The notes beneath the pieces were generated by a model, which was given only the letters and a program-made list of their open reading frames with translations, was not told the origin of the DNA and searched no databases. From IMG/VR virus record IMGVR_UViG_2703719303_000002, positions 39,354-103,353 of that record: a stretch of DNA of 64,000 nucleotides; one strand, given 5' to 3'. The DNA comes from a virus (taxonomy: Duplodnaviria > Caudoviricetes). The stretch's first letter is position 1. Every line of letters begins with the position of its first letter. Shown piece after piece: positions 1 to 37,411 of this stretch. Both the position numbers and the translations under genes were made by a program.

Positions 1-670
1 CTTTTACAACTTTTGCAAACATAGGATTTGTTTCTATATTAACTCTAAACGTAGCTGGCTCAAAACGTCCTGCATATCCAATTATATATGCATATATATA
101 TAATCTTTGCTCTTTTTTATCTTCTCTTACTTCTCTTATTGTAATTTCCTGAGTAAAATTATTTTCTTCCTTAAATTTTTCATCACTAAAGTTTATAGGA
201 TTAGTACATTGTTGTACTTTCGAAATATTTAATGTATATTGTTCTTTAGTTACACCATCTTTGTTTTGATAAGTACTATATGATGGTTTTCCTATAATTA
301 CCACATCCATACCATCTTTAAAATCATCATTAATCCTTTTTGCTAAATCATAATCCGTTTCAATAATCTCATATCCTTTAGGTAATGGATTATTTCTCTT
401 ATTCCAATCAACAGCCAACGCCTTTTCCTTTTCTTTGTTATAAGCATATGCATTATCTTGCGTGCATCCAAAAACCTCAACAACTGGACTATTACTATCT
501 GATGTTTGTAAGATAAATCGTATTTTTCTGTAAGCTCTCTTGTCTGCTTTTTCTGGAACATCTTCAAATCCCAATGATTTTCTAGGTTCTGTAAGTCCTT
601 GAATTCTTCCTCTTAATCTAAATGATCCTTTCTGTTCTTGTAAAATTCCTTTATACTCTTGTTTTGCCAT
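1..670 (-). CDS. Phage protein, 3' end outside window; possible OB-fold ssDNA-binding/replication protein
   Basis: ATG at 670 with GGAGG RBS; open frame MAKQEYKGILQEQKGSFRLRGRIQG... runs off the edge; absent from the ORF track; function is inference. Confidence 0.75.
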   Translation of the reverse strand, partial: MAKQEYKGILQEQKGSFRLRGRIQGLTEPRKSLGFEDVPEKADKRAYRKIRFILQTSDSNSPVVEVFGCTQDNAYAYNKEKEKALAVDWNKRNNPLPKGYEIIETDYDLAKRINDDFKDGMDVVIIGKPSYSTYQNKDGVTKEQYTLNISKVQQCTNPINFSDEKFKEENNFTQEITIREVREDKKEQRLYIYAYIIGYAGRFEPATFRVNIETNPMFAKVVK

Positions 671-701
671 TGAAACATTCCTCCTAAAATTTATCATTAT
701 A

Positions 702-733
702 TTTATAATACAATACTAAGTGTTATAAGTCAA
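702..733 (-). promoter_or_regulatory. sigmaA promoter TTGACT-17-TATTAT containing the 18-bp box (713-730)
   Basis: Minus strand ttgact tataacacttagtattg tattat. Confidence 0.75.
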
Positions 734-951
734 GTGAAACTAATAGCTCCAAAAAATTTCAGCACCCAACCACATACTGCAATAGGTATAGTTATTTCTC
801 CTGTAAATAATCCTATTATTAAATTACCTATCGTAGGTATAGCAATATGAAACCATGAAAGGATCTCTTGTACCGACCAAGCTCCTATACTTATATTAAG
901 AATTACTAAAAAAATCGGAACAAAACACCCTAAGCATCCTGATTTCTTCAT
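730..951 (-). CDS. Small membrane protein
   Basis: Hydrophobic 73-aa ORF with RBS. Confidence 0.75.
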   Translation of the reverse strand: MKKSGCLGCFVPIFLVILNISIGAWSVQEILSWFHIAIPTIGNLIIGLFTGEITIPIAVCGWVLKFFGAISFT

Positions 952-970
952 ATAAACACACCACCTTATT

Positions 971-1207
971 TTATTTGTTATTTCTTAGATTAAAAATTTT
1001 CAGACTACTAGATATTGCTTCTTCTAGTGTGTTGCCATATCCATGACAAAAATGTTTATTATTTAACGGATCACTGACAGGTTCTATGTTCATTATCCTA
1101 TCAGCTAAATTGCAATGCCACTTATCTTCTAATCTATTTATTAATGGATGGTACTTCTCGTACTTTTTTAAAAATTCTGCTACACAAATTTTCATATTAA
1201 AACTCAT
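971..1207 (-). CDS. Hypothetical phage protein
   Basis: Translationally coupled ORF in the minus-strand array. Confidence 0.65.
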   Translation of the reverse strand: MSFNMKICVAEFLKKYEKYHPLINRLEDKWHCNLADRIMNIEPVSDPLNNKHFCHGYGNTLEEAISSSLKIFNLRNNK

Positions 1208-1481
1208 TCTCCTTTATTTTTTTTATATTGTAAGACTCTATATAATCTGCTTTGGTTTTTAAGCGAATATACCTATTTTCTAGGACTACCAACCCCATAT
1301 TCTTTCCTTGTAATGCTGCAACAATATCTTTTTTCTTTTTTAATGGTGGATTTAGTCCACTATTATCTGCATATACAGCACAATCACAAGCAGTACCTTT
1401 TCCAGATATAAACACCACATCAACAACGTAAACTTCTTTGTTCTCTGCCGTTTGATTCGTTTCTAATGTATCAATTTTCAA
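1197..1481 (-). CDS. Hypothetical phage protein
   Basis: GAGGTG RBS, TTG start. Confidence 0.7.
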   Translation of the reverse strand: MKIDTLETNQTAENKEVYVVDVVFISGKGTACDCAVYADNSGLNPPLKKKKDIVAALQGKNMGLVVLENRYIRLKTKADYIESYNIKKIKENEF

Positions 1482-1495
1482 AACATAACACCTCT

Positions 1496-1732
1496 TTATT
1501 CTTCTAATATAGAATATGATTCAATCATACTTGTACAAGATATATTCCCTTGAAAATATTTTGTACAAATCCAAATTAAGTGATTATTGCTTTCTAAAAT
1601 TCCTTTAATTTCTTCCTTTGTAGAACAAAAAAATGCAATATCGCCTTTATTACATACTTTATTCTTTGCTATTCTAGCTTTATGAATGAGTGTTCCATCC
1701 CTTAGTAGAATATTCACATATATTTCTTTCAC
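1496..1732 (-). CDS. Hypothetical phage protein
   Basis: GAGGAG RBS, GTG start. Confidence 0.7.
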   Translation of the reverse strand: MKEIYVNILLRDGTLIHKARIAKNKVCNKGDIAFFCSTKEEIKGILESNNHLIWICTKYFQGNISCTSMIESYSILEE

Positions 1733-2038
1733 TTATATCTCCTCTCTCTTCTTATAAAAGCTAGTTTTTATAAGAGTTGCACTACCATCTTTGATTTCAT
1801 ATATAGTCTCCACACTATAATCTTTACCACTCCATAAGTCTATTGCTAGAAATATTTTTTCATAAACCTTTTTCAGTAACTTAAATGGCTTATACTTTTT
1901 GCTATAACAGGCTTTATTAATATTCCTATACAATATTGTCTTATCGTTTCTTTTACTACACATAGTTAAATGTGCGTTAAAAAAACGAATACGCTTATTG
2001 ATATTCTTACTTATCTTTTTAACTTGTCTTCTATTCAT
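1733..2038 (-). CDS. Hypothetical basic phage protein
   Basis: GAGGT RBS, coupled to neighbours. Confidence 0.7.
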   Translation of the reverse strand: MNRRQVKKISKNINKRIRFFNAHLTMCSKRNDKTILYRNINKACYSKKYKPFKLLKKVYEKIFLAIDLWSGKDYSVETIYEIKDGSATLIKTSFYKKREEI

Positions 2039-2280
2039 ACAATTACCTCTAATAACTCAGGATTTTCGTAGATGTTGCCAATCACTTCCACCCTGTTTCC
2101 ATTCCTCACACAATTAAATAAATCTTGATTTGAACGTTTTTTACACATATACAGCAAAGGTACTTTTTCATTCGCACCAAGATACTTCTCCCACTCTTTC
2201 CTTTAATCCATTTTTTTGTTGCATATAGCGATTTTGGTAAATCAAAAGTATATTTGATAACATCACACCCATATAATTTT
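2035..2280 (-). pseudogene. YopX-family pseudogene (frameshifted remnant)
   Basis: YopX C-terminal signature EVIGNIYENPELL at about 2047-2088; upstream part broken across frames. Confidence 0.75.
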
Positions 2281-2318
2281 ATTTTTAATTCTTATCTATA
2301 TCTCTTCCTATATCGCCT

Positions 2319-2702
2319 TTACTCCTCCTTGATCATAAAATTAATTGCTTCTAATTGCCCTACAGATAAGTTTACCCCTTGTAAATCACTAATTGAAATT
2401 TGATGAACATCTATTTCATTTTCAATATCTAACAACTCCTCAAAATCTTTGTTCCACTGCTCTTGGTTGTCACTTTTAGGTAACCCTTTTTTATCTTTTA
2501 ATGGATTTCCATTTTCATCTCTTTTCACATATTTATCTGTTAATTTTTTTGATATTTCATCAAAATTCTTTAATACACTATTAACTTTATTTTTGTTTTT
2601 CATTAGTGCATACGAAGCCCTTATTGGTAGCTCTTTTTTCATTAGCTGTTGCATTCCACTTATCCCATTTATCATTTCCCTGTTTGTTATTTTTTTTATC
2701 AT
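2319..2702 (-). CDS. Phage protein, DUF1617-like
   Basis: LPIRASYALMKN...KYVKRDENG...ELLDIENEI pattern; AGGAGG RBS. Confidence 0.6.
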   Translation of the reverse strand: MIKKITNREMINGISGMQQLMKKELPIRASYALMKNKNKVNSVLKNFDEISKKLTDKYVKRDENGNPLKDKKGLPKSDNQEQWNKDFEELLDIENEIDVHQISISDLQGVNLSVGQLEAINFMIKEE

Positions 2703-2798
2703 TTCTAACTCCTCCTAAATATTATTTATATTTAATAAGATATAATTGTAATTGTTTATATAACCTTTTTACACTCTTATATCTTAATTTATAACCTT

Positions 2799-2981
2799 CT
2801 AACAGCTATTGTTTATTCTTATAGTTTGGCTATATTCTACTTCCAATTTGCTTTCACTTTCTATGTTAAATAAAGCTTTTCTCATTTGCTTTTTGTGTGT
2901 TTCCTTTTCTTCTTCGTTTTGATATTCGTATTTCCATAGTTTCATTTGACAAATTTCTTTATGAACTTTTCTTAACCTCAT
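2799..2981 (-). CDS. Hypothetical phage protein
   Basis: AAGGAG RBS. Confidence 0.6.
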   Translation of the reverse strand: MRLRKVHKEICQMKLWKYEYQNEEEKETHKKQMRKALFNIESESKLEVEYSQTIRINNSC

Positions 2982-3087
2982 TTTTTACTCCTTGTCCTTG
3001 CTTTTTTAATGCATTTTATAAAAATAAAATTCATTTAACATAAATTTTATTTTTATAAAATTGTAAAATACTAATCGCCATAAGTGA

Positions 3088-3522
3088 TTAAAATAAAGCG
3101 GATACCTCTCTATTCGTTGTAAATGTATATAAATAACACTTATTTATTATCTCTTTATTAGGGATAATACCCATTTCTATTTTTCTTTCATAATAATCAT
3201 ATCTCTTTTTTTCATCTTCTGTAAAAACAGCCATTTTTGCTAATTCCAAAATTTCTTCTATTGCACTTTTACAAAATTCAATGTCTTTTGAATCTTGTAA
3301 ATTAACATTTATGGGATTGCTTATCTTTTCATTCTGCTTTTCCCCATACTGATATATTCCTACTTGCCAATCCCATTCGTTTATATAAAGAACAACATAC
3401 CCATAAGAGATAGGTATCATATAAAACCTATCTCCATCTATATTCTCTCCTTTAGATAAGATATACTCTTTAACCTTTTTAAATAAGTCTAATTTTGCCT
3501 TTGCTTTAGTTTCATTTTTCAT
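3088..3522 (-). CDS. Hypothetical phage protein
   Basis: GAGGGGG RBS supports ATG at 3522 rather than 3564. Confidence 0.7.
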   Translation of the reverse strand: MKNETKAKAKLDLFKKVKEYILSKGENIDGDRFYMIPISYGYVVLYINEWDWQVGIYQYGEKQNEKISNPINVNLQDSKDIEFCKSAIEEILELAKMAVFTEDEKKRYDYYERKIEMGIIPNKEIINKCYLYTFTTNREVSALF

Positions 3523-3542
3523 TTTATTATCCCCCTCTATAA

Positions 3543-4412
3543 CTACTTTAATTTTGTTAACCATTTAATAGAGTCTGCTGTTGCATAGCCATAAGCAGCA
3601 GCAACAACTTCAATAGATACTCCCTTTTTTAGTAGAAATAACATCTTTGACATTCTAACAATTCTTAAATCTACTTTCTCTAAGTTTATGTTTATTTTCC
3701 TAAATTCGTCTTTATATTCCTGCTTAGTTTTAGAAAAAATATTTCTTATTCCTTTCACTTTACCATCAGTACGACATCCTATTAATAGTGCCTTTATAAC
3801 ATAAGGACATTCTTTATAATCTATTGTATATACTCTCCCATCCTTCCCCATCTTCTCCTTTCCCTTTTCATTCTCTATATTATGAAGATCTTTTATAATA
3901 TCTTTATCTTCTATAATATATTCTTTATTTTTTGTTTTTAATAAAGCTTTTTTATTCAAAAAAGAAATATCTTGCATTTTTAAATTTTGTATTTCATCAG
4001 GTTTCAATCCCTCCCAAGATAATTCAATAACTAATCTATCCCTTATACATTGCACAACACCACACATATCTTTATATTGTTTATATGAAATTAAAGTTTC
4101 CTTAACTTCATCCTTTTTTACATATCTTGATAAATCTGTAACAGGAAAATTTCCTATAGTTATATTTTCTTCGTATGCAACATAAGCAGCAAACTGTCTG
4201 AGAACTAATAAAACTGAATTAACTCCTCTAGGTGTTGATGGTCTTACAATATCCATTAACATTCCTACTTCTTTTCCATTCTTTTGTTCCCACTCCATCA
4301 AACCTTTTCCCGTTTTTTCTTCTACTTCTATAATAGTCTTTAGAATTCTTTTGGAAGCTTTTGGGTAAAATTGCGTAAATAAATTATAATAGTATTTACT
4401 CGTGTTCTTCAT
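3543..4412 (-). CDS. Catalytically degenerate tyrosine-recombinase-fold protein; putative MrpR/SroF(YopR)-like master repressor
   Basis: RDRLVIELSWEGLKPDEIQNLK mimics integrase box I with Arg replaced by Lys; no HxxR, LGH or terminal Tyr; context like the SPbeta sro operon. Confidence 0.7.
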   Translation of the reverse strand: MKNTSKYYYNLFTQFYPKASKRILKTIIEVEEKTGKGLMEWEQKNGKEVGMLMDIVRPSTPRGVNSVLLVLRQFAAYVAYEENITIGNFPVTDLSRYVKKDEVKETLISYKQYKDMCGVVQCIRDRLVIELSWEGLKPDEIQNLKMQDISFLNKKALLKTKNKEYIIEDKDIIKDLHNIENEKGKEKMGKDGRVYTIDYKECPYVIKALLIGCRTDGKVKGIRNIFSKTKQEYKDEFRKININLEKVDLRIVRMSKMLFLLKKGVSIEVVAAAYGYATADSIKWLTKLK

Positions 4413-4944
4413 CTTTACTTACTCCTTTCTTAATGATGTAAAAGGACTTAGGAATAATACCCAATTCCTCTATAACAATAGCCTTTTTGTACTTTTTAAC
4501 AGCTCCTGATGATGTCATATAGCGCACAAAAAGTTCATCAATTTCCTCATCTTCAACTACCACTAACTCTTTATTAACTGTAATAGAAAGAAGCCCTTTT
4601 AATCTATTGTTATCTTCAGCAGCCTTTTGTAATGCATTCTTTAAGCTTTGTATATCTTCATCCTTTTTTTGATTTGATCTTTTAAGTTTACTTAATTCTA
4701 TCTTTAAAACATCCGCATTTGTATCGTTATCAACCTTATTTTTATTTTTTAAATCCTCTTTAAATAAAATATTCTTAAATTCTTCTTGATCCTTTTCTGT
4801 TTCAAGAATACTATAGTCTCCCTCTAGCATTTTTTCTATCTCTTTTGAAATAGATATGGGAGATAATAAAAATCTCTTCTTTAGAAATGCGGAAATTTCT
4901 AGTTCTTTACCTTTCAAAATTTGATTATCTATATTTAAATTCAT
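4396..4944 (-). CDS. Hypothetical coiled-coil protein co-transcribed with the MrpR-like gene
   Basis: GAGGTG RBS before ATG 4944; overlaps the next gene. Confidence 0.75.
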   Translation of the reverse strand: MNLNIDNQILKGKELEISAFLKKRFLLSPISISKEIEKMLEGDYSILETEKDQEEFKNILFKEDLKNKNKVDNDTNADVLKIELSKLKRSNQKKDEDIQSLKNALQKAAEDNNRLKGLLSITVNKELVVVEDEEIDELFVRYMTSSGAVKKYKKAIVIEELGIIPKSFYIIKKGVSKDEEHE

Positions 4945-4964
4945 TTTTTTCACCTCACAAAATC

Positions 4965-5013
4965 AATTATAGCAATTCGTATGAAAAAAGTCAATATACT
5001 AATTGCTATAAAT
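4965..5013 (-). promoter_or_regulatory. Strong sigmaA promoter TTGACT-17-TATAAT (TGn-extended) flanked by two inverted copies of the 18-bp box
   Basis: -35 at 4989-4994, -10 at 4966-4971; boxes at 4965-4982 (+) and 4996-5013 (-). Confidence 0.8.
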
Positions 5014-5020
5014 TAAAAAT

Positions 5021-5920
5021 TCAAAATATCTTATTAAGAGGATTGGCTTCTACTGCATTTTTTAATTGCTCTTTAGAAACATCTGTGTATATTCTGGTTG
5101 TAGAAACATCTTCGTGTCCTAATAATTCTTGTAACTGAAATAAATCTACTTCTCCACTTTGATATAATAGAGTTGCAAACGTATGTCTTAATATATGTAC
5201 TAAAACATCATTGTCACCTTTAATTCCTGCATTGTACATGGCATTTCTGATAGCATTTTGAACAGTTCCTCGTGCTATTCTACCATTTCTTTCTGATAAA
5301 AATAGAGCTTTTGTCTTTAAATTTTTTGGTCTTTGTTTAATATATAATTTAACAATCTTTTTTGCCTGATCTGTTAAATAAACTACTCTTTCTTTATTTT
5401 CTTTACCTATAATTCTTATTTCTTCTTCTAATATATTATCTACATTTAGGGATATGAGTTCTGATAATCTCATACCTGTTGATAAAAATATTATTATAAT
5501 ACACTTATCTCGAATAGTATTTCTGCTATTAACACTATTTATCAACCTTTTGCATTCTTCTATACTTAATGATTTTGGCAATCTTTTAGGAATCTTAGGT
5601 AAATCTCTTTTGTCTATCTTATCAAAAGGGTTATCTAATACAATTTTTTCTTGATCTAAATATTGAAAGAATAACTTTAAACTAATAATTTTTCTTCTAA
5701 TTGTTGTTGCTGCTCTCCCATTTTTTATTAAGTAGTTAATGAATTTTTTTATCTCCCTATAATCTATATTAACAAAATCCTCATCTTTTGTTATCTGCCT
5801 TTTTTTGTTTTTCATATATCTAAACCATACTTTTAAATCATTTAAATATTGTTTTCTAGTTCCTTCAGACTTAACTAAAAGATTTTTTTCATACATTTCA
5901 AGTCTTTCTTCTACCTTCAT
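5021..5920 (-). CDS. XerC/D-family tyrosine recombinase
   Basis: TGMRLSEL, GKENKER, HILRH, LLGH, TTRIY: full catalytic set. Confidence 0.93.
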   Translation of the reverse strand: MKVEERLEMYEKNLLVKSEGTRKQYLNDLKVWFRYMKNKKRQITKDEDFVNIDYREIKKFINYLIKNGRAATTIRRKIISLKLFFQYLDQEKIVLDNPFDKIDKRDLPKIPKRLPKSLSIEECKRLINSVNSRNTIRDKCIIIIFLSTGMRLSELISLNVDNILEEEIRIIGKENKERVVYLTDQAKKIVKLYIKQRPKNLKTKALFLSERNGRIARGTVQNAIRNAMYNAGIKGDNDVLVHILRHTFATLLYQSGEVDLFQLQELLGHEDVSTTRIYTDVSKEQLKNAVEANPLNKIF

Positions 5921-6069
5921 TTTCTTTTTCGCACCTCCAACTCTTTATTTAAATTATTCTTTTCTTTAATCCATACTATAGAAGAAAAAACGTCTCTTAA
6001 AAATCTTATTACCTCTATTACAATCTCTAGTAGTATTTTTATTATTCCGAAAAACAAAAATACTCCCAT

Positions 6070-6357
6070 TTAAGCACACCTTACTTTCAGTGGAAGAAAG
6101 AATCTGTTATCATGCGATTCGATTTCTTTAAATAAGAACTTCAAATTTTTATGTTTACCATGGTGATGCATACCCACCCCTTGGCGTGTATTTTCATGAT
6201 ATAATACAATTCCTTCCTTCATCACCTGATTTCTTTTAATATACCACGTATCTAATTTACTTTTTATCCTAATAAAATTCCCTATAAAATCATATTTAAA
6301 ATTATATATTCTACATAAATTTTCTATTTCCTTTTCTTTATTATTCAATACTGTCAC
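6070..6357 (-). CDS. Hypothetical phage protein
   Basis: Overlaps the upstream stop; His-rich LYHEN...HHHGKH. Confidence 0.7.
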   Translation of the reverse strand: MTVLNNKEKEIENLCRIYNFKYDFIGNFIRIKSKLDTWYIKRNQVMKEGIVLYHENTRQGVGMHHHGKHKNLKFLFKEIESHDNRFFLPLKVRCA

Positions 6358-7399
6358 CTTCTTTAAAAATCTCTTCTATTTTTTTGTTGATTTCTTCATC
6401 TTGATTAGAAAAATACTCGTTATAGTCTTTTTTAAGTTCCTCTAATCTAATCTTGATAGATTCTGATCTTGCCGAACCTGAACCAGCAGCAGAATTATAT
6501 TTTTCACTTATAGAAGCTCTTCTTTTTCCACTGTAAAATTTTAATAACCAACTTGCTAGTTCTTCTATAGTTTTATCTGATTTAATTACTATAGGTATTA
6601 TTGTAAGTAAATGCGTTCTTGTAAGAATTCTTTTAGCTATCTTTTTATGTTCTTTATCTTCTGTATTTATTGCTTTCCATATATCTAATATTTTACTATA
6701 TGCTTTTTTTATCTCTTCTTTTTGTTGTTCTGTAAATTCTACATCTTGCATAAGCGGTCTTATTTTTTTAGTTTCAAAACTAGGGTTTTCTGTATATAAC
6801 ATTGCATACGTCTTTATTACAATATCTTCATTTGTATATTTATTTACCTGCTTTAATGTTAGAGCATTTTTAAATATTTCATGATTACCTAATTCCCTTA
6901 TTGCATCAAAACTTTTGGCTTTAACTCTTGTTAATTCTATTGCTGATAAAGCTTTTCCATTGTTTAATCTATAAAACATTTCACTTACTTGATCATCTGA
7001 TAAATCCAAAAAGAAATATACTGTTAAAGAGTAATCTTTTACTCTATCTTGTAATTCCTCTGGTAATTCCTCAAAACTCATTCCATTTACATCAATTGAT
7101 TCTCCATCTTCTAACTCAACTTCTTCTATTCCATCAAGTTTAAACTTTCCTTCTATAAATTCCTTAATTGCATGACAACGCTGTTTTCCATCCAACATAT
7201 CATATGTTTTATCTTCATTTCTTGCTGCATAAAAAGCTGGAATAGGATAATTCTGAAACATTGAATCTATAAGCAATATCTTTTTATCAGTTTTCCAACA
7301 TAAACCACGTTGTACTGAATTGTCAAATCCAAGAGTACCCTTGTCCATCATTTTTGCAATCTGTTTAGCAGTCCATTGTATATTTGATTTTTTTAACAT
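6341..7399 (-). CDS. DUF262 (ParB/Srx-like fold) protein without an HNH domain
   Basis: VQRGLCW, LIDSM...YPIPAFY, LDGKQR, FYRLNNGKALS motifs. Confidence 0.85.
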   Translation of the reverse strand: MLKKSNIQWTAKQIAKMMDKGTLGFDNSVQRGLCWKTDKKILLIDSMFQNYPIPAFYAARNEDKTYDMLDGKQRCHAIKEFIEGKFKLDGIEEVELEDGESIDVNGMSFEELPEELQDRVKDYSLTVYFFLDLSDDQVSEMFYRLNNGKALSAIELTRVKAKSFDAIRELGNHEIFKNALTLKQVNKYTNEDIVIKTYAMLYTENPSFETKKIRPLMQDVEFTEQQKEEIKKAYSKILDIWKAINTEDKEHKKIAKRILTRTHLLTIIPIVIKSDKTIEELASWLLKFYSGKRRASISEKYNSAAGSGSARSESIKIRLEELKKDYNEYFSNQDEEINKKIEEIFKEGDSIE

Positions 7400-7680
7400 T
7401 ATTAGAACCCCATTTCTTTTATTATATTTTTGTATATGAAAAAGCTAGTAATTGATTCCACTAACTCTTGCTTAAAGATAAAATTTTTCTATACTTTTTA
7501 CTTCAATTTAAAGTAAACCTTCTATTTAGTAATCTAATGGCTTTATAGCTATTTCCAATTTGTTCTCTACTGGTTGGATTGATAAAATTGTCCTTTCAAG
7601 GTATTCACACTCTTTATCATTCACTTTCATTTTTACCTTAAATTATCCACTTAAAACTCTCATTGATGAACCATGTACTT

Positions 7681-8211
7681 TTAATGATTTATTAATGAGA
7701 GTTCTTTTTCTAATTCATTTTGTCTTTTTTCTAAATTAGAAATTTTCTTTTTCATTTCTGATTCTATTCTCTTTGATAATCTTCTTTCTATTTCAACCTT
7801 CACTTCGTTCCAATTTTCTATAGCATAAATTACATATTTCATATAATTCCTATAAAGAAGATCTGTCTTAAATGGTTCTTGTTTCTTAATAGTAAAAAAA
7901 TATGTTTCTGTTCTTGGTTCAATACGTTTACCATCACAATTAATATGCTTCCAAGAAATCACACAAATATATTCATCTCTAATTTCAAAACCTAGCGTTT
8001 CATCTCCACATTTATACAATGAAATTCCTGTATCAATAAAACATGAATATTTTTTCAAGGAATATAAATCATCAAACATCTTATTCCAACCTATATTTCT
8101 TTTTTCTGTAATCTCATTTTTTAATTGTACTTGCTCTAATTCTATTTTTCTTAATGTTTTATCAAGTTCTTTTCTTATTTCATATAATCTTTCTAATTTA
8201 TTCATTTTCAC
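7681..8211 (-). CDS. Hypothetical protein with coiled-coil ends
   Basis: GGGAG RBS, 176-aa ORF. Confidence 0.75.
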   Translation of the reverse strand: MKMNKLERLYEIRKELDKTLRKIELEQVQLKNEITEKRNIGWNKMFDDLYSLKKYSCFIDTGISLYKCGDETLGFEIRDEYICVISWKHINCDGKRIEPRTETYFFTIKKQEPFKTDLLYRNYMKYVIYAIENWNEVKVEIERRLSKRIESEMKKKISNLEKRQNELEKELSLINH

Positions 8212-8254
8212 ACAACTCCCTATAATTTATTTTTCAATTTTTTCTTTAACAATC

Positions 8255-8527
8255 TCATTTAATTTGTAATGTTCTTTTAATTTTCTTATATTCATTGTTT
8301 GTTTTGAAAGCTATACGTGGAGTTTTCCCCGTATAATAATCTATTTCCACTACACTACTTATTAAATAGCCTTTACTTTCTTGTTTCGCTAAATATTCAA
8401 ATAGCTCTTTTTTGATTTCTGCTTCTACAATTTCCACCCTTGTATAATATTGTATCCTATATAATTTATTCTCTATTTTTCTCAACCTTTCAACATCTCC
8501 ATTCAATAGACTATAAAGTAATTTCAT
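8255..8527 (-). CDS. Hypothetical phage protein
   Basis: ORF in array; start uncertain. Confidence 0.55.
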   Translation of the reverse strand: MKLLYSLLNGDVERLRKIENKLYRIQYYTRVEIVEAEIKKELFEYLAKQESKGYLISSVVEIDYYTGKTPRIAFKTNNEYKKIKRTLQIK

Positions 8528-8593
8528 TAAAGTTATTAACTAATGATAATTCATCAATTAATATATTACATGAATCATTATGACATAATCTAA

Positions 8594-8851
8594 TTAGTCT
8601 ATAGTGTCCATTTCTATTACTTTTTTGTTAGTTAAGTATATTGCTTTTTCATCTTGCTTATCTTGATATAAAAAATAAATTTTATCTTTCAAAAATTCTT
8701 TTGCTATTTTTTTAAGTTTTACATTATATTTATTATCCTTTGTTATCGCTTTAAATCTACCGTTTCTCAATGGGCAATCACCACAATTTTTATCATAATT
8801 CATTATACATACAGTATCTAGTAATATTTTCAATTCATTCATCCTTAACAA
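8594..8851 (-). CDS. Hypothetical phage protein
   Basis: ORF in array. Confidence 0.55.
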   Translation of the reverse strand: MLRMNELKILLDTVCIMNYDKNCGDCPLRNGRFKAITKDNKYNVKLKKIAKEFLKDKIYFLYQDKQDEKAIYLTNKKVIEMDTID

Positions 8852-8873
8852 CTCTCTTTCATAATCTTATTTT

Positions 8874-9128
8874 TTATTTAAATAACTTTGATGAGTCAAA
8901 ATATACTTCTTCGCTATTATTATTTCTTACTGCTGACCAATAAAAAGCACTTCTACAAATTCCGCTTAAATATGTTTTTCTTCCTAATACTTCTAAAGCT
9001 TTCTTTGTGAGATTTTTTATCATCCATTTTATATACTGTCTTTGATGTTGCTTCTTCAATTTGTATCAAGTCTTCTTCTTTATACCCCATCCTGTTATTG
9101 TTTTTTTATCTTCACTTGTTAATTTCAT
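8874..9128 (-). pseudogene. Frameshifted small phage gene
   Basis: AGGAGGT RBS + ATG 9128; a coherent protein (MKLTSEDKK / GYKEEDLIQIEEATSKTVYK / KALEVLGRKTYLSGICRSAF) needs two frame changes. Confidence 0.55.
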
Positions 9129-9147
9129 TTTCTACCTCCTAAAATAC

Positions 9148-9510
9148 CTATAAAAGGGTGATTTTATAATTTTCCAATATCCATTTTTTAACTTCATCTA
9201 AAGAACCTAAAAGTTTTCTTTTAGAAAAAGTTTCTTGTTCTGAAAGAATTTCTGCTATAATTTGATTGCTACTTTCTTTATATTCTGCATACAAGTCCTC
9301 TAAACTTTTGTAATAAGTATTTACAGCGTTTTCAAGTTCCTCTTTCGTATAATTATTTAAGTCTATTGAATGATAGCTAATAGCATATATTTCATTTATT
9401 TCAGCTATATTTATTATTTTAAAAATACCTTTAGACACTTCCTTCACAAACTGAAAATCATCAGTTTGTATCCATTCTTTTCTAGCATCTTCTATTTCTT
9501 CAATCATCAA
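9148..9510 (-). CDS. Hypothetical phage protein
   Basis: AGGAGGT RBS. Confidence 0.75.
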   Translation of the reverse strand: MMIEEIEDARKEWIQTDDFQFVKEVSKGIFKIINIAEINEIYAISYHSIDLNNYTKEELENAVNTYYKSLEDLYAEYKESSNQIIAEILSEQETFSKRKLLGSLDEVKKWILENYKITLL

Positions 9511-9527
9511 ATAACCTCCTTTCTGTA

Positions 9528-9848
9528 CTATATAAACCCTTTAAGTTGATTTAATTCATTTTTACGTCTTTTATCATCTTTATGCACCTTATTAGTATTA
9601 ACTGGTTCAATTATTTTTTTCTTTTTCGTATCCATATCACACCTATTATCATCTTGTTGCACCTCAACGGTACTGCTTTTAATTTGACTTATATTATCGT
9701 TCTGCACCGAAAGGCAACCATTTATAGCTAAACGATATAATATTTCTTTAATGGTATCTTGCGCTCTATAAGATTGAGAAAGATAATCTAAAATTTTTTT
9801 ATCTTTTTCCTTATCTTCATTTAATGTAATATATATTCTCTTACTCAT
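9528..9848 (-). CDS. ParR-like ribbon-helix-helix adaptor
   Basis: N-terminal KRIYITL beta strand plus two helices, low-complexity linker and C-terminal helix; coupled to the ParM-like gene. Confidence 0.7.
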   Translation of the reverse strand: MSKRIYITLNEDKEKDKKILDYLSQSYRAQDTIKEILYRLAINGCLSVQNDNISQIKSSTVEVQQDDNRCDMDTKKKKIIEPVNTNKVHKDDKRRKNELNQLKGFI

Positions 9849-10717
9849 TCTTCTTCACTCTGCCATATTATTTCTGCTGCTCCTGCTGCACCATTCGTAT
9901 TACTATTTAATGGATCATTGTGTAATTTTGAATTATTTAATGGTAACTTTTCTATTTGTTCTTTTAACATTAAAGCAGTTCCTCCTGTCCAAATCACTTT
10001 ATATGTTTTTAAGTTAACATAAGCCTTTACTTCATTAAGCACTTCTGTTAAAAAATCCTCGTATTCAATATCACTTATTTCTATTGTCCCATTCTCAACC
10101 AGCCTTGGAATGTCCTCTTCTGTGTAGTCTTCACCTTTTGAATTTTCTCTAGTCTTAACCTTTGTATAAAAATCAAAGCTACCCAATTTAATTGTATGCA
10201 ATAGTTGAATAGCCCCATCTTGTAATACACATATGTTTATTGTTCTGCTGCCTAAGTCTATTATGCAAAGACTACTTTCTTTATCCTCTTCTGATAAGCT
10301 AAAATAAGTAGCATAACCCTCTGGGAGAACTATTGTATCATTAATAAGAACTTTTCTCTTTTCTCCGTTGAACTGAAAATTGAACTCTTTTTCTTTTAAA
10401 TTTTCAATCATCTTTTCCTTATTTTTCATTTGAACTATTGGTAAAAGAGTTACTAAATTAGTTTCTATATTGTCATAATTATTTGCCCTACAAATCGCAT
10501 AAAGCAATTGTGGCAAATAATTTCTTGCCACCTTGTTAAATTCTTTATTTAATTCGCCAACACCTAGATATGTAATCTTACTTTCTCCTTGCATTTGTAT
10601 TCTTTCAAACCCTTCTGGGTATGGTTGATAATCGGTAATTTTACTACTAAAATTACCCTGATTGCTTCCTGATTTATATTTGATATTAAAGTTTCCTAAA
10701 TCAACTACAGTTATCAC
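9845..10717 (-). CDS. ParM/StbA-family actin-like ATPase
   Basis: VDLGNFNIK (phosphate 1), LPEG, IIDLGSRT (phosphate 2), WTGGT (adenosine). Confidence 0.88.
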   Translation of the reverse strand: MITVVDLGNFNIKYKSGSNQGNFSSKITDYQPYPEGFERIQMQGESKITYLGVGELNKEFNKVARNYLPQLLYAICRANNYDNIETNLVTLLPIVQMKNKEKMIENLKEKEFNFQFNGEKRKVLINDTIVLPEGYATYFSLSEEDKESSLCIIDLGSRTINICVLQDGAIQLLHTIKLGSFDFYTKVKTRENSKGEDYTEEDIPRLVENGTIEISDIEYEDFLTEVLNEVKAYVNLKTYKVIWTGGTALMLKEQIEKLPLNNSKLHNDPLNSNTNGAAGAAEIIWQSEEE

Positions 10718-10743
10718 TTTACATTACCTCTTTCTTTATGTTT

Positions 10744-10777
10744 AACGTATTATACGTTACTTAATTTTTTTGTAAAA
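10744..10777 (-). promoter_or_regulatory. parM-like operon promoter (TTTACA...TATAAT) with palindrome TAACGTATTATACGTTA over the -10
   Basis: Seen directly upstream of the RBS. Confidence 0.55.
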
Positions 10778-10802
10778 AAATAAGAGACTATATAATAATC
10801 TC

Positions 10803-11135
10803 TTATCGTTTATTCCAATTTTCAAGCATCAATTCCAATTTTGCCTTATGCAGCTTTTCTTCAAAACTCATATTTTTTTCTTTTTCTTTGTCCTCTTCTT
10901 CCCTAATCTCACATACTCCTTCTAAGCAGCTTAACCTTGCTGCAACTTCTATTGGCGATTTTTTTAAAAAATCCAACTTTTTAATAAGGTCTCTAAAGTC
11001 TTTACTAAAAGTCATTTGCTGTTCAATACCATACAATGTTTCTCCTAAGTCGCTTAATAATTTCTTTTGTTCATGAATTAAATGTTTTTTCATTTCTTCA
11101 TCAAATTTATTTATATGATCTTTCATAGTATACAC
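10803..11135 (-). CDS. Hypothetical protein
   Basis: GGGGAG RBS; own TATAAT upstream and hairpin downstream. Confidence 0.7.
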   Translation of the reverse strand: MYTMKDHINKFDEEMKKHLIHEQKKLLSDLGETLYGIEQQMTFSKDFRDLIKKLDFLKKSPIEVAARLSCLEGVCEIREEEDKEKEKNMSFEEKLHKAKLELMLENWNKR

Positions 11136-12012: not shown

Positions 12013-12060
12013 AATTTTATCCTTCTTTCTATTTAAATACTAACTGTTAATAGTAGACTT

Positions 12061-12465: not shown

Positions 12466-12467
12466 AA

Positions 12468-14590: not shown

Positions 14591-14622
14591 TTTGTTATTC
14601 CCTCTTTTCTTTATACTAATTG

Positions 14623-14922
14623 TTATAAGCTATTTATTTTATCTTTCTTATACCTATCTAAATCAAATCCTTTAAAATTAAACGAAAACCCGCAAAATAT
14701 TTCTTTATAGGAATAGTTTATATAATGCCTCTTGAAAAATTTAATTAATCGTGTTGGATCAAGTATAGTAATATCTTGACCTTTTAAAAAATCATATACA
14801 CTTTTTTTAAAATTATAAGAATACATATCTAAACCATAACGTATTTCATTTTCAACCTCATTTTCTAATAGCAATATATTCACCTCTAATTTGCATATAT
14901 TATGTTTACTTTGAAACTTCAA
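14623..14922 (-). CDS. Hypothetical phage protein
   Basis: ORF in array; start uncertain. Confidence 0.6.
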   Translation of the reverse strand: MKFQSKHNICKLEVNILLLENEVENEIRYGLDMYSYNFKKSVYDFLKGQDITILDPTRLIKFFKRHYINYSYKEIFCGFSFNFKGFDLDRYKKDKINSL

Positions 14923-17223: not shown

Positions 17224-17283
17224 AATTTTATCCTTCTTTCTATTCAAATACTAACTGATATAAGACGTTTAATTTGATTCGTC

Positions 17284-17700: not shown

Positions 17701-17753
17701 TTTTAAAACTCCTTTATTATATTTTATTTTTAATGCTAATTGTCATAAGTGGA

Positions 17754-19320: not shown

Positions 19321-20190
19321 TGTGTATTTTAGGTCGAATACTTATTGTGCTAACTGTTATAAGTCATTAATTTAAATTAGCTATGTATACCTGCCTTTTT
19401 CGTTTGTTTACTAAGTCGCCTATAAAAGCTATTTATAAATTATAAGTAATACTGCTATATACTCATATAAGGCTATTTAACACGTGTTTATATTTGATAT
19501 AGAATTGTACTACTATAGTATTAAAAATCAATTATAGACGTTTTAAGCTGAATATATAGTCATAATCTATTTATATATCAATAGTATATTAACCTATAGT
19601 ATATATTATAGTGTATATCATTAGATATAAGATTATCATTAAATTTAAGAACCTATACAATATATAGTACTAATATGTATGTATTATTCAGCCATAAAAA
19701 ATACTATAGTTTTTTTATTCCACTATTAATAAAAACAAGTAAACATTATTTTTTTGAAAAAGTAATCAAACAAAAAAATATATTAACTAATAACAAATAT
19801 TAGTTCATAAAGATTCAACTATAGCTATTTTCTGACTACAACACCCTTTTTTTACAAGAAATTACTTTACATTAGATTAAATATGTATTTAATTCAATGT
19901 TTTTCACTCAAACCCTCTACGCTAAGAATATCAATGTGTTTTAAGAATTATTTATTGTCATGATCGTAGGAAAATAAAGCTATTTGCTGCAAGAATTACT
20001 ACATAGGGGGGTACTTTACGTTTCAACGGGTTTCGGGTTTTCAAAATTTCCCCACCCCTAGTCTCTTCTCTTACTCAGTTAAAATTTAATATTATATACA
20101 GTAATTAAAACGGGAAAAAACTCTAAATCCTTTTACATACTTAATTTTTTATATACTTTTCTAACTTTTTTGTTTTTTTAATACCCTTTC

Positions 20191-20425: not shown

Positions 20426-20454
20426 TTGACTTGTAACACTTAGTATGATAACAT
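20426..20454 (+). promoter_or_regulatory. Rightward sigmaA promoter TTGACT-17-TAACAT (TGn-extended) with the 18-bp box at 20429-20446
   Basis: ttgact tgtaacacttagtatga taacat. Confidence 0.75.
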
Positions 20455-23951: not shown

Positions 23952-23980
23952 TTGACTTATTGCAGTTAGTATGTTATTAT
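23952..23980 (+). promoter_or_regulatory. sigmaA promoter TTGACT-17-TATTAT (TGn-extended) with the 18-bp box at 23955-23972
   Basis: ttgact tattgcagttagtatgt tattat. Confidence 0.75.
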
Positions 23981-24010: not shown

Positions 24011-25840
24011 ATGGAGATAAATAAGCAGCAAAAAGAAGTTATAAACCTTAACGAAGGTATTTATTGTGTTAGCGCTGGCGCTGGAAGTGGAAAAACTTTT
24101 TCGTTAGTTCAACATATAATTCATTTAGTAAATGATTTGAATATTCCACAAAGTGATATTCTGCTAATTTCTTTTACAAGAGCAGCAGTTAATAATCTAA
24201 AAAAAAAGTTAGAAGAAAATTTTATTTATGACGTTTCCGTTCATACTTTTCACAGCCTATCAGCTAAGATACTTAGCGAATATGGGTTGAATGTTTCAAA
24301 AACATTACCAGTTTGGAAGATTCAAAAAGAATTTGAGAAAATAAATTCTAATGTTGAGACAGAAAAAATTTTATCGTGGATTGGTTTTCAAAAAAATCAT
24401 GGAAAAACCCCAAAAGATAAATTTTATCCGATAGAAACAGATTATACAGAAACTGAGCTTAGAGCTATGTTTAAACTTTATGAAAATTTAAAAGAAAAAG
24501 AAAACTGTTATGACTTTGAAGATTGGATTATTTTAGCTTTAGAAAAGTTAAAAAAGCATCCCCGTAAATGGAAATATGTAATGGCTGACGAAGTTCAAGA
24601 TAGTAATGATTTAAATATAGAGATGATCAAACTAATTTCCAAGAATCTTATTTGTGTTGGTGATGTTAGACAAGCGATATATAGTTTTCGTGGAAGCAGT
24701 CCTCAATTCTTTTTAAATTTTGATAAAGAATTTAATGGGGCAAAAATACTTCATTTAGATATTAATTATCGTTCTAAAAAAAACATTGTAGACAAAAGTA
24801 ATAAATTCATAAAACCGTATTTTAAAGATTATAAATATTATTCAGATAGCATAGCAAACTTTAAAGATAATGGAGAAATAAAATATTTTTCTTTTGTGAA
24901 TAAGTTAGAGGAATCTGAAAAGATATCTAATTTAATAAAAGAAAAGATAACAAAAGGTGAAGATCCTAACAATATCGCTGTTCTCTATCGGTTAAATGAT
25001 GACTCAAGTTATTTAGAATGTGTTTTAAGAAGAGATAAAATACCTTATTATATTGAGAATGATTCTAGTTTTTTTAAAAGAAAAGAAATAGCTGGAATTA
25101 TGGGATATTTACGATTAATTCAGAATTCAAAAGATGATGGAGCTTTTTTAGATGTCTGGAATCTAAGAAATATTCCATTAAAATATATGTCAGGTACAAT
25201 TTTATCAGATATAAGGAAGCAATCAGTAAAAGAAAATAAAAGTTATTTTGAGATTTTTAAAAAAATGGATTTTAATAAAATGTTTCAAATAAGATCAAGA
25301 AATGATTTTATAAAAAGCATTGAGAAATTAAAACATAAGAATAAAGTATCTATAAAGCAATTAATAGATGATATAGTAAAAGAATTTAATTTATATCAAT
25401 GGATAAAAGAAAAATATCCCAATAAAGATGAGCAAGAAGAAAGAAAAGGTTCAATAGACGTTTTGAAATCTTTCATTGTAAATGATGATTTGCAATTTTT
25501 TATAGATTTTGTACAAACATCAAATATGAATATTAAGAAAAAAGATAAAGATGGAGTAAAGCTTATGAGTATCCATAGATCCAAAGGACTTGAATGGAAA
25601 AGTGTTTTTGTTATTGGAATACAAGATACTAGGTTTCCCAATGCAAGAAATGGCTTGAATGAAGAAGCCAGATTGTTCTATGTTGCTACTACTAGAGCAA
25701 TTGAGAATCTTTATTTAAGTGAAATTGGCAGAAATAATTCTTTTATATGTCAGTATAGAGATGGTGTAGGCTTACAAAGTAGGGCTGTAGATAAAAAACA
25801 ATTTAAGAAAGAATTATCTTCTACCACTTATGGCAATTAG
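24011..25840 (+). CDS. UvrD/PcrA-like SF1A helicase
   Basis: AGAGSGKT, DEVQD, GDVRQAIYSFRG, NYRS, SIHRSKGLEW, EEARLFYVATTRA. Confidence 0.93.
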   Translation: MEINKQQKEVINLNEGIYCVSAGAGSGKTFSLVQHIIHLVNDLNIPQSDILLISFTRAAVNNLKKKLEENFIYDVSVHTFHSLSAKILSEYGLNVSKTLPVWKIQKEFEKINSNVETEKILSWIGFQKNHGKTPKDKFYPIETDYTETELRAMFKLYENLKEKENCYDFEDWIILALEKLKKHPRKWKYVMADEVQDSNDLNIEMIKLISKNLICVGDVRQAIYSFRGSSPQFFLNFDKEFNGAKILHLDINYRSKKNIVDKSNKFIKPYFKDYKYYSDSIANFKDNGEIKYFSFVNKLEESEKISNLIKEKITKGEDPNNIAVLYRLNDDSSYLECVLRRDKIPYYIENDSSFFKRKEIAGIMGYLRLIQNSKDDGAFLDVWNLRNIPLKYMSGTILSDIRKQSVKENKSYFEIFKKMDFNKMFQIRSRNDFIKSIEKLKHKNKVSIKQLIDDIVKEFNLYQWIKEKYPNKDEQEERKGSIDVLKSFIVNDDLQFFIDFVQTSNMNIKKKDKDGVKLMSIHRSKGLEWKSVFVIGIQDTRFPNARNGLNEEARLFYVATTRAIENLYLSEIGRNNSFICQYRDGVGLQSRAVDKKQFKKELSSTTYGN

Positions 25841-25868
25841 TATATAGAAAATATTAGGAGGATTTTAA

Positions 25869-29160: not shown

Positions 29161-29227
29161 ATATTTTTCGACTTACGACAATTAGTATATAATATATACA
29201 TAAGTTTATTTTGGGAGGTTTTATTTT

Positions 29228-33844: not shown

Positions 33845-35338
33845 ATAGGTAAAAGAAAAACATCTAAAAACAATATAAGTAATAATTTTTGTTTTGGAGC
33901 AAGTCTAGCCGAAGACGACATTGAAAACATTAGGACATATGAAAATAGTACATTTTCTTATAGAGGAATCCCAAGAGGTTATTCTATAGATACTCTTTTG
34001 CTAAATCAAGAAAGCAACATAAAACAATTGTTTGAGTTATGCACATATTATTATGCAAAAGAACCCCTCTTAGCCAACTCGGTAAAAAATGTACTTGTAC
34101 CTTTTAGTATGAGTAGCTGGAAACTAGAAGGAGAAGATGGGGAAATAAAAGACCAGATGCTTGATTATTTAGATAGTATATCAATAGACGATTTATTGAG
34201 AGATTTGTTTCATGATTTCTATGTATATCAAAATCTTTTTGGATATATAAAAGAAAATGGTACTCCAGAACTTTTTGCTCCTTGGAGAATAAAGGTATCT
34301 TCTATCGCAGAAAACGGAAATCCTGTTTTGGAATTTAGCATAACAGAGATACTTAATAAGCCATATTCTATTACAAATCAAGAGTTTATAGACACTATTT
34401 CTAAAGCTTATGATGGTTACCCAATAGAAGTTGTTAATGCAATAAAAGGCAAAAATTGGTCAAACTCTGGTACTGGATGGATTCAATTAAATCCAAAGCA
34501 TACTTTTTGTATACAAGCTGTAAAAAGTAGATGGAGCAAATATGCAACTCCTGTTATTTGCTCTGCCTTAGAAGCTTTAGGTAAAAAACAGCTTATAAGT
34601 ATATATGAAGATAGTCAATTAAATAATGGAATGAAATCTTTTCTTCAAGTAAATGTTGGAGATAAAGACCATAAGAAAACTATAAATATAAATGATATTG
34701 AACAAGTTGGGAAAATATACAAAGATGCAATTAATGGTTATCCTCTTGCTGTTGTATCTTGGAATGTAGACTCTCAATGGAAAAATATGGATACAAAAAG
34801 TCTGTTTGATAAAAATAAATATCAAACTGTAAATGAATCCATTCTTAGTTCTATTGGTATATCTGCTATAGTTGTTACGGGAAATGGTGGAAGTGGTTCT
34901 TTTGCTCAGGCAAGTATAAATCTTAGTACTTTAGCGAAAAGGATAAAAGATGGTCAAAACAAAATTGCAAAATTTATAAATTTACTTTTAAAAAGAAAAT
35001 TTTCAGGAAGAAGTAGTACTTCGGATGGAATTCCTTCCTTTAAATTTGAATCCCTAAATTTACAATCGGAAAAAGATTTTAGAAGTGAAGTTATGCAGCT
35101 TTATACTTTTGGATTATTAAGTAGAGAAACGACCTTATCTGAATTAAAATTCGATTTTAAGCAAGAAAAGAAAAGAAGAGAAAGTGAAAATAGTGAAAAT
35201 TTAGATATTGTTTTCTCTGTTCCACCATCATTTAATCATCAAAGTTCAAATAGTAGTGGAAGACATGAAGAAGAAAATTCAGATAAAGATAAAAGTTTAT
35301 CTGGTAAGCAGCCAAAGCCTAGCACAGTATCGAATTAA
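33845..35338 (+). CDS. Portal protein (YonE-like); apparent ATA start
   Basis: Follows TerL; frame open from ATA 33845 after AAGGAGG; TTG 33998 has no RBS. Confidence 0.82.
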   Translation: MGKRKTSKNNISNNFCFGASLAEDDIENIRTYENSTFSYRGIPRGYSIDTLLLNQESNIKQLFELCTYYYAKEPLLANSVKNVLVPFSMSSWKLEGEDGEIKDQMLDYLDSISIDDLLRDLFHDFYVYQNLFGYIKENGTPELFAPWRIKVSSIAENGNPVLEFSITEILNKPYSITNQEFIDTISKAYDGYPIEVVNAIKGKNWSNSGTGWIQLNPKHTFCIQAVKSRWSKYATPVICSALEALGKKQLISIYEDSQLNNGMKSFLQVNVGDKDHKKTININDIEQVGKIYKDAINGYPLAVVSWNVDSQWKNMDTKSLFDKNKYQTVNESILSSIGISAIVVTGNGGSGSFAQASINLSTLAKRIKDGQNKIAKFINLLLKRKFSGRSSTSDGIPSFKFESLNLQSEKDFRSEVMQLYTFGLLSRETTLSELKFDFKQEKKRRESENSENLDIVFSVPPSFNHQSSNSSGRHEEENSDKDKSLSGKQPKPSTVSN

Positions 35339-36878: not shown

Positions 36879-36925
36879 CATCTTATAACAATTAGTATAT
36901 GAAAAATATTAGGAGGATTTTTAAT

Positions 36926-37369: not shown

Positions 37370-37411
37370 TTTTTCAGCTTATAGCAATTAGCATATAAAG
37401 GAGAAATGATT

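Follow-up and report, generated by a model that had tools for sequence, protein, structure and literature searches.

A catalytically dead relative of MrpR, YopR and SroF and a candidate lysogeny switch in an SPbeta-like prophage

How might a prophage stay dormant if no CI-type repressor can be seen in its genome? This question is raised by a locus in IMG/VR record IMGVR_UViG_2703719303_000002, a 103,353-bp sequence of a tailed phage (Caudoviricetes) that IMG/VR classes as a provirus of about 65% completeness. We analysed a stretch of 64,000 nucleotides, bases 39354-103353 and thus the right two thirds of the record, which we refer to as the window and whose numbering is used here unless genome coordinates are given. 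An initial annotation, made from the sequence alone, had singled out five co-directional minus-strand open reading frames (ORFs) encoding a DUF262 protein, a 95-aa protein (orf95), an Xer-type recombinase, a coiled-coil protein and a 289-aa protein that resembles a tyrosine recombinase without its active site. It likened them to the sro operon (yopM-yopR) of SPbeta and proposed a switch between lysis and lysogeny that works without CI. All five ORFs are present where they had been placed (Table 1). Altogether, the observation on the locus is confirmed, and its interpretation as an sro-like switch is partly supported. The best explanation of the whole, which we consider probable, is that a distant SroF/MrpR-type repressor module controls an SPbeta-like prophage.

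That no CI/Cro pair is visible also holds for the 103-kb record. It encodes no Peptidase_S24 (LexA/CI-type) protein, and its only Cro/C1 helix-turn-helix (HTH) domain is part of a 434-aa HTH_19 + TPR protein (genome 12874..14178), to which we return below.

MrpR, YopR and SroF are distant relatives of the catalytically dead 289-aa protein

The integrase-fold repressors MrpR, YopR and SroF of SPbeta and phi3T are the closest characterized relatives of the 289-aa protein. Taken singly, the protein scores E 0.001 against Pfam Phage_integrase, which is under the Pfam cut-off. Its sole PHROG match is phrog_5830 (1e-8), which YopR matches at 4e-117, and BLASTP aligns it to YopR itself over 209 residues (E 7e-4, 22% identity). 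When 1.8 billion representatives were searched exhaustively with phmmer, 71 proteins were found, nearly all of them close to 300 aa in length; 25 scored below 1e-10. When a profile built from 56 of these 71 relatives was compared with the PDB, MrpR/YopR structures (8A0A, 8BJV, 8BJ6) came first, at 5e-10, followed by an archaeal XerC-like recombinase at 2.7e-7. Pfam MrpR_N_CB is found in 13 of the 56 (best E 2.9e-25). YopR matches family members P0062, P0052, P0065 and P0066 at 1e-18 to 1e-20; the window's Xer matches only P0069, the weakest outlier of the family.

Structure prediction points to the same relatives. The AlphaFold model of the 289-aa protein is very confident (predicted local distance difference test, pLDDT, 93.7; predicted template modelling score, pTM, 0.89), and the top six Foldseek matches are all SroF, MrpR or YopR. 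Its fold, a core-binding domain followed by a tyrosine-recombinase catalytic domain, is closest to the SroF/MrpR structures. The proposed kinship depended on a recombinase fold, and this fold is present and nearest to the repressor branch. Like the repressors (PDB 8A0A, 8BJ6, 9RD5), the 289-aa protein combines the two-domain architecture with the loss of catalytic residues, and by profile as well as by structure they are its best match.

Residues were called from alignments with relatives and with the neighbouring Xer. Catalytic Arg I, His II, His III and Tyr are all lost: K137 (in GLK) stands at the box I arginine position, where the family consensus is Thr; the HxxR position reads R250-I-V-R253, with the His gone and Arg II (R253) kept; and LGH has become YGY, Y276 replacing His III. 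These are the losses that had been read from the sequence at the outset, and the likening to YopR/MrpR/SroF stands as both homology and structural match. We conclude that the 289-aa protein belongs to this family as a remote member with a dead active site. At 50% identity the family splits into about 70 clusters, motifs outside the active site are conserved in it, and almost none of these clusters is represented in a cultured phage record. For relative P0002, the only match among deposited phage records is a "putative integrase" of Psychrobacillus phage Perkons.

Could the ORF simply be the decaying, functionless remnant of an integrase? Its catalytic residues are gone, and its C-terminus is shorter than those of its relatives. 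A remnant would, however, be hard to reconcile with a 70-cluster family that has conserved motifs outside the active site, with an identical sequence on 53 contigs, with a very confident fold prediction, or with a strong promoter of its own and cover by RNA-library contigs. We regard this explanation as very improbable.

The repressor promoter and a repeated 18-bp box

The gene for the 289-aa protein overlaps the coiled-coil gene by 17 nt. Between the latter and Xer lies the best sigma-A match in 7.5 kb, with a predicted transcription start near 4959, and a sigma-A-type promoter is found at the equivalent place before the coiled-coil gene in all six related loci examined. The five ORFs had been taken for a single operon; with this separate promoter, the stretch is probably two transcription units.

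RNA-library contigs of four studies were compared with positions 1-15000 of the window. In three of the four, one contig bridges the coiled-coil and 289-aa genes (3074-4900, 3266-4913 and 3343-4939). No contig spans the promoter, and the neighbouring contigs start at 5007, 5053 and 5082. Neither uncovered stretches nor contig depths are read here as silence or expression level. The contigs give a weak hint that the pair forms a separate transcript present in lysogen RNA. As a separate observation, two related loci (L007:7270-7295 and L012:7255-7275) have GTCGAACGAATT in common upstream of the coiled-coil promoter; in L007 it is part of a CGAA...TTCG palindrome that faintly resembles a LexA/Cheo half-site.

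A k-mer count over intergenic DNA brought out an 18-bp box with the consensus A-CTTATA-R-CA-N-TTAGTAT in the sense of transcription. C7, T10, T11, A12 and G13 are invariant among its 29 oriented copies over 103 kb. Allowing up to two mismatches, the window contains 16 copies where 0.72 are expected, and the maximum in 100 shuffles was 5. In both arms, most operons have a box 10-35 nt before their ribosome-binding site, oriented with transcription. About one third of them fall exactly within the spacer of a TTGACT-17-TAnnnT promoter; most copies have no conserved -35 or -10 at a fixed distance. At the repressor promoter there are two inverted boxes, 13 bp apart, and the one at 4966..4982 is the only counter-oriented copy in the window. 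No box was found upstream of the DUF262-Xer unit or of the gene for the HTH-TPR protein.

What binds these boxes? Cluster A mycobacteriophages offer one precedent, in which the immunity repressor, gp71 of L5, is an HTH protein and the stoperators are 13 bp long. As in that system, the present phage has at least two dozen short asymmetric intergenic sites in one orientation relative to transcription; unlike gp71, the candidate binder has a recombinase fold, and its binding is predicted only. A second precedent is MrpR, whose ten SPBRE binding sites are located in promoter regions, its own operon's among them (PMC10516654), and SroF binds as a monomer to a 26-bp box at sites spread over the genome (bioRxiv 10.1101/2025.11.27.690993). 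The 289-aa protein would likewise have a multi-site regulon across the phage genome that includes its own promoter. The sites themselves differ: the repressors of SPbeta and phi3T have about ten SPBRE sites or a 26-bp asymmetric box, whereas here some 29 oriented copies of an imperfect 18-bp palindrome are the candidates. Because of the analogy with the ten MrpR sites and their own-operon member, we lean, with some reserve, towards the boxes being operators of the 289-aa protein.

A mechanism can be sketched on this basis. In the lysogen, host RNA polymerase would transcribe the coiled-coil and 289-aa genes from the strong sigma-A promoter. The 289-aa protein would bind DNA through a clamp closed by its core-binding and catalytic domains and so silence the lytic genes, the boxes acting like the SPBRE sites of SPbeta or the stoperators of mycobacteriophages. 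The two inverted boxes that clamp the repressor promoter would lead to autoregulation. Integration would be carried out by a separate large serine recombinase encoded at the left end of the record, and a peptide-sensing HTH-TPR receptor, 29 kb away, could supply the input signal.

Alternatively, the repressor assignment could be correct and the boxes could be phage promoters, served by a YonO-like RNA polymerase or a SigF/G-like sigma factor, in which case the sites of the repressor would lie elsewhere. Compact, strictly transcription-oriented boxes shortly before ribosome-binding sites do resemble promoters of phage polymerases, as does the lack of a -35/-10 at fixed distance in most copies. 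The phage encodes both a YonO-like polymerase (E 2e-11) and a sigma factor of its own, and a box stands ahead of the polymerase operon. However, a counter-oriented promoter over the repressor -10 would fire antisense into Xer, an arrangement that is odd for a promoter and typical of an autoregulatory operator pair. The third of the boxes that sit in sigma-A spacers are placed like operators, and a contiguous 18-bp motif is at odds with the -35/-10 spacing expected of a sigma factor. We consider phage promoters the less likely reading of the boxes, but one that deserves to be taken seriously.

The binder could also be a different protein. A dimer of the coiled-coil protein might be the repressor that recognizes the boxes, with the dead recombinase as co-repressor or second repressor, as SroE is to SroF. 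The imperfect palindrome would suit a dimer, and translational coupling links the coiled-coil gene to the 289-aa gene, with which it is also conserved. A language-model search placed the protein nearest to HTH + leucine-zipper clusters resembling transposase OrfA (score 0.85), a lead that lies within the chance range and that we rejected as an assignment. Speaking against the coiled-coil protein as box-binding repressor, Pfam, PHROGs and NCBIfam detect no DNA-binding domain in it, its structural model is poor (pLDDT 63.6), and in related locus L015 the coiled-coil gene is missing and the dead recombinase still adjoins Xer. We hold this division of labour to be improbable.

Returning to the 289-aa protein as the master repressor acting at these boxes, several observations weigh against it. 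Its kinship is remote: structural alignments give just 11-14% identity to SroF/MrpR, next to the 22% of BLASTP, and Pfam's own MrpR models give no match. The chain ends at K289, short of the near-invariant C-terminal Tyr column of its relatives and of the 320-325 aa of MrpR/YopR/SroF, and the equivalent Tyr of MrpR, Y304, is reported to be needed for DNA binding (PMC10516654). The box is a short, imperfect 6-4-6 palindrome, a form more in keeping with a promoter or with a protein that binds as a dimer than with monomeric SroF and its 24-bp asymmetric read-out. It is absent from related loci L006-L015 and from SPbeta, and k-mer searches for boxes of the relatives' own gave mostly ribosome-binding-site noise and no equivalent; the link between box and repressor thus has no co-variation behind it. 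The RNA contigs show presence only, not level, strand or ends, and could stem from DNA carry-over. Finally, since the record is about 65% complete, a classical repressor could sit outside it.

Table 1. Positions of the genes, promoter and 18-bp boxes in the window
Feature	Position	Strand	Remarks
289-aa catalytically dead tyrosine-recombinase-fold protein, putative master repressor	3543..4412	-	homology and AlphaFold/Foldseek
Sigma-A promoter TTGACT, 17 nt, TATAAT with TGn extension	4966..4994	-	11/12 matches, near-consensus
18-bp box, sense copy	4996..5012	-	ends two bases upstream of -35 of coiled-coil/repressor promoter
18-bp box, counter-oriented, 2 mismatches	4966..4982	+	overlaps spacer and -10 of coiled-coil/repressor promoter
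18-bp box	3068..3084	-	distal end of repressor unit, before next gene; one RNA contig ends at 3074
18-bp box	713..729	-	
18-bp box	12037..12053	-	
18-bp box	14613..14629	-	
18-bp box	17248..17264	-	
18-bp box	17733..17749	-	
18-bp box	19347..19363	-	
18-bp box	20430..20446	+	first of rightward arm
18-bp box	23956..23972	+	
18-bp box	25827..25843	+	before YonO-like RNA polymerase operon
18-bp box	29172..29188	+	
18-bp box, weak, 2 mismatches	34094..34110	+	within coding sequence
18-bp box	36882..36898	+	
18-bp box	37378..37394	+	
144-158-aa ORF	3088..3564	-	covered by RNA-library contigs that also cover repressor gene
Coiled-coil protein, 182-185 aa	4396..4953	-	conserved position; 21-26% identity in five related phages
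XerD/XerC-like tyrosine recombinase, intact, 299 aa	5021..5920	-	PF00589 9e-39 and SAM-like N-domain
50-aa ORF, overlaps Xer start	5917..6069	-	46-60-aa ORF at equivalent position in relatives
orf95, small His-rich protein, 95 aa	6070..6357	-	copies 36-53% identical in 8/10 related loci, just upstream of Xer
DUF262 (ParB-like) protein, 352 aa, motif LDGKQR	6341..7399	-	Pfam GmrSD_N 4e-20, phrog_2598 5e-48

Neighbouring genes and the sro operon

If the module is a functional unit, which of its genes stay together? Ten IMG/VR loci encode relatives of the 289-aa protein at 22-28% identity, most of them on 120-141 kb contigs of which several are complete with terminal repeats. In 7-8 of the ten, the order is orf95, a 46-60-aa ORF, Xer, a 170-210-aa protein, the dead recombinase and a protein of about 125 aa, with identities of 36-53% for orf95 and 34-46% for Xer. 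The synteny that had been suggested as a check therefore holds from orf95 to the dead recombinase, but not for the DUF262 slot, which is variable. The conserved small ORF had been overlooked: the ORFs named in the initial annotation exist, but its list lacks the 50-aa ORF between the 95-aa ORF and Xer.

The DUF262 protein and its DGKQR motif were correctly recognized. Its GmrSD_N domain spans residues 16-158, and Pfam detects no DUF1524/HNH nuclease domain in the 352 residues, so it does not qualify as a type IV GmrSD. None of the ten related loci has a DUF262 gene in the slot upstream of orf95, where we found a MazF/PemK fusion (L007, L012), a sigma factor (L011) or DUF932 and HTH genes (L015). 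Judged from this gene content, the DUF262 gene is exchangeable cargo in a variable slot. Other large Firmicutes phages also encode DUF262 homologues; the annotation of Enterocloster phage PMBT24 shows no integrase close to its DUF262 gene, which lends no support to DUF262 as a gene of lysogeny modules. The fusion proteins of L007 (4282-5220) and L012 (4380-5489) are 312-369 aa long and have an N-terminal MazF/PemK toxin domain. A MazF/PemK domain in this slot deserves mention, as arbitrium of SPbeta and phi3T works through host MazEF.

As a counterpart of YopQ, for which it had been taken, the DUF262 protein fails: the two have only the ParB/DGQHR-type superfamily in common, and its gene lies upstream of Xer rather than before the repressor. 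YopQ is DndB-like, and the DUF262 protein reaches only 0.0085 and 0.0011 on the DndB/DGQHR models; the two proteins align solely around the DGxxR motif.

The Xer fares better. Like the XerD/XerC resolvases, the 299-aa protein aligns end to end with E. coli XerD (1A0P; E 4e-34), with Arg, Lys, HxxR, His and Tyr all aligned, and is intact as had been claimed. Unlike them, it is phage-encoded, stays under the NCBIfam equivalog cut-offs (1e-63 to 1e-64 on the XerD/XerC models) and always follows orf95 and the small ORF. No dif-like site for it was identified. Xer and SPbeta YopP are reciprocal best matches (1e-10) and both lie upstream of the repressor, which bears out the proposed correspondence; YopP has HSFK where the window's Xer has HxxR. 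No known family was found for orf95, whose invariant residues include H54, N56, H64, H82 and D83; structurally, the sole lead points to a domain found in exonuclease-like proteins of phages. Xer, orf95 and the small ORF keep company across the relatives; a role for them in multimer resolution, or one like that of YopP, is a guess.

The constant company of an intact Xer invites another explanation of the dead recombinase, i.e. that it is no repressor but a non-catalytic architectural or targeting partner of Xer in multimer resolution, inversion or excision control. The two genes are syntenic in 7-8 of the ten related phages, Xer is fully intact, unlike YopP, a ParM-like actin of the phage would suit plasmid-style maintenance, and the inverted box pair looks like the binding arms of a recombinase. 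However, sequence and structure tie the 289-aa family to MrpR/SroF specifically and not to Xer, and the coiled-coil/289-aa pair has a promoter separate from that of Xer. The spacing of the inverted boxes exceeds a crossover region of 6-8 bp, some 29 scattered single boxes would be senseless as recombination sites, and MrpR displayed no recombinase function (PMC10516654). Only a small probability falls to such a partnership, and we keep to the repressor reading.

With a putative repressor in place, how far does the analogy with sroA-F extend? Both modules have an integrase-like gene, one gene between, and an integrase-fold repressor, and both stand in a lysogeny-type region of an SPbeta-like phage. 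YopM, YopN, YopO and YopQ have no match in the window or the 103 kb; only YopP with Xer and YopR with the 289-aa protein can be paired. The claim of an sro analogue is thus sustained for the repressor and the integrase-like gene preceding it, but not for yopM/N/O/Q. In further contrast to sroA-F, the intervening gene encodes a coiled-coil protein and not a DndB-like YopQ/SroE, the integrase-like gene is catalytically intact, and there are two promoters instead of a single operon. Speculatively, the adjacent intact Xer may be the ancestor of such repressors; their constant pairing offers a view on how a recombinase turned regulator.

The likelier start of the coiled-coil gene is the ATG at 4944, which gives 182 aa, as called in other assemblies. 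The model predicts a long helix at residues 76-126 and is too poor for a structure search. The proteins of about 190 aa encoded by relatives align with the 185-aa protein in an N-terminal helical part, the coiled coil and a conserved C-terminal block.

The phage and a candidate input signal

By its gene content, the phage is SPbeta-like, because it encodes a YonO-like RNA polymerase, YorF/YorH/YopX domains and a large serine recombinase, and this part of the initial annotation holds. The 820-aa polymerase (26392-28854, plus strand) aligns with SPbeta YonO over 464 residues (BLASTP E 2e-11), the DxDxD region included, and Pfam YorF, Phage_SPbeta_YorH and YopX occur in neighbouring genes. YonO-like polymerase copies, 41% identical, are found in two of five related viral genomes. 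At the left end of the record (genome 352-3015) lies the gene for a 571-aa large serine recombinase with Resolvase, Recombinase and Zn-ribbon domains, which is probably the integrase of the phage; its SPbeta counterpart is SprA. It is adjoined by a gene for a 227-aa SigF/SigG-like protein, a sporulation-type phage sigma factor. Genes run leftward until about 19 kb of the window and rightward beyond about 20.5 kb, and the right arm encodes helicases, terminase, portal, a 2052-aa ORF of tape-measure size, tail fibre and a GH25 lysin.

The label "clostridial" is based on the low GC content (27.8%), an anaerobic NrdD reductase and the sporulation-type sigma factor. An identical 289-aa protein is recorded on 53 contigs, the longest of 3.96 Mb, and one copy lies 0.74 Mb into a 1.74-Mb contig. 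This internal position and the number of contigs show that the element is integrated as a prophage and occurs in many assemblies. Among 50,697 deposited phage records there was no match to the 289-aa protein, to orf95 or to 20 kb of DNA, a plasmid search gave no match, and a scan of genome contigs returned two distant loci only.

The input signal of the switch had been left open, and a candidate can now be named, outside the window and 29 kb from the repressor module. The HTH-TPR protein introduced above would be an RRNPP-type receptor. Its gene has its own terminator-insulated promoter (TTGACA-17-TATTAT) and is directly followed by a 41-aa ORF with a basic-hydrophobic, signal-peptide-like N-terminus and the ending MFPDAPW, then by a long hairpin, an 18-bp box and a 55-aa membrane-protein ORF. 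The cassette occupies G000:C1:12341-14300 on the minus strand, with the receptor and pre-peptide pair at genome 12737-14178. Receptor, pre-peptide ORF, hairpin and small gene follow one another as in RRNPP/arbitrium systems, and as with SPbeta aimR-aimP the pair lies within the same genome as the repressor module; the layout recalls aimR-aimP-terminator-aimX. Unlike in arbitrium, similarity to AimR is not significant (BLASTP against SPbeta AimR, E 0.015, TPR region only), and the cassette is not beside the repressor module, which in SPbeta adjoins aimR-aimP-aimX. A search for the receptor in five related viral genomes gave no match and carries no weight as absence. The RRNPP layout is known in prophages generally (PMC10075063), and the receptor with a secreted 41-aa pre-peptide is, from its sequence features, a candidate for the input signal.

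A search for LexA/Cheo boxes with at most one mismatch found none, and two relaxed hits lie outside the listed intergenic gaps, which says nothing against an SOS response. Likewise unlike SPbeta and phi3T, no Sar/YopT homologue was seen.

Integrase-fold master repressors have so far been studied experimentally only in Bacillus arbitrium phages. Our analysis indicates that CI-independent dormancy control by an integrase fold probably extends beyond Bacillus. That a very distant relative occurs in a prophage of the low-GC anaerobe type, with other partners and another candidate operator, suggests that this solution predates the SPbeta family and occurs more widely than it. More speculatively, uncultured SPbeta-like phages of 100-140 kb from low-GC anaerobes might, as a group, combine a Tyr-less integrase-fold repressor and its coiled-coil partner with about 29 stoperator-like sites, induction being gated by an unlinked peptide signal instead of LexA. 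We put this forward as a doubtful possibility; if true, it would unite immunity of the SroF type with that of the mycobacteriophage type. The locus offers a concrete, testable candidate switch, made up of a single promoter, an 18-bp box and a peptide cassette, in a prophage found in many sequenced strains and public RNA-seq data sets.

Several further features of the phage were observed. In the early arm of the integrated prophage, positions 9845-10717 (minus strand) encode an actin-like protein (ALP_N, ParM-type), which is reminiscent of the prophage actins that help to replicate or segregate phage DNA. An inverted repeat of 117 bp with two mismatches occurs at 9624-9740 and 57402-57518, 47.7 kb apart. 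The first copy lies within the gene downstream of the ParM-like gene, and RNA contigs end loosely at its borders, 9624 and 9740. The second lies behind the tail-fibre gene and just ahead of a second tyrosine recombinase (58250-59272, plus strand; 340 aa, PF00589 6e-20), which stands between the fibre and the GH25 lysin. The repeat is a possible substrate for inversion or recombination. Positions 10803-11135 (minus strand) encode a helical protein of 107-110 aa, for which a family search found none, in a self-contained unit with its own extended -10 promoter and terminator; a 301-nt contig (10841-11141) reaches a depth of 500 in one RNA run, the deepest across the 15 kb compared. Finally, a 114-aa ORF (62575-62919, minus strand) close to the record's right end, where the strand bias switches again, is probably a fragment; of the domains of a large serine recombinase it has the zinc ribbon alone.

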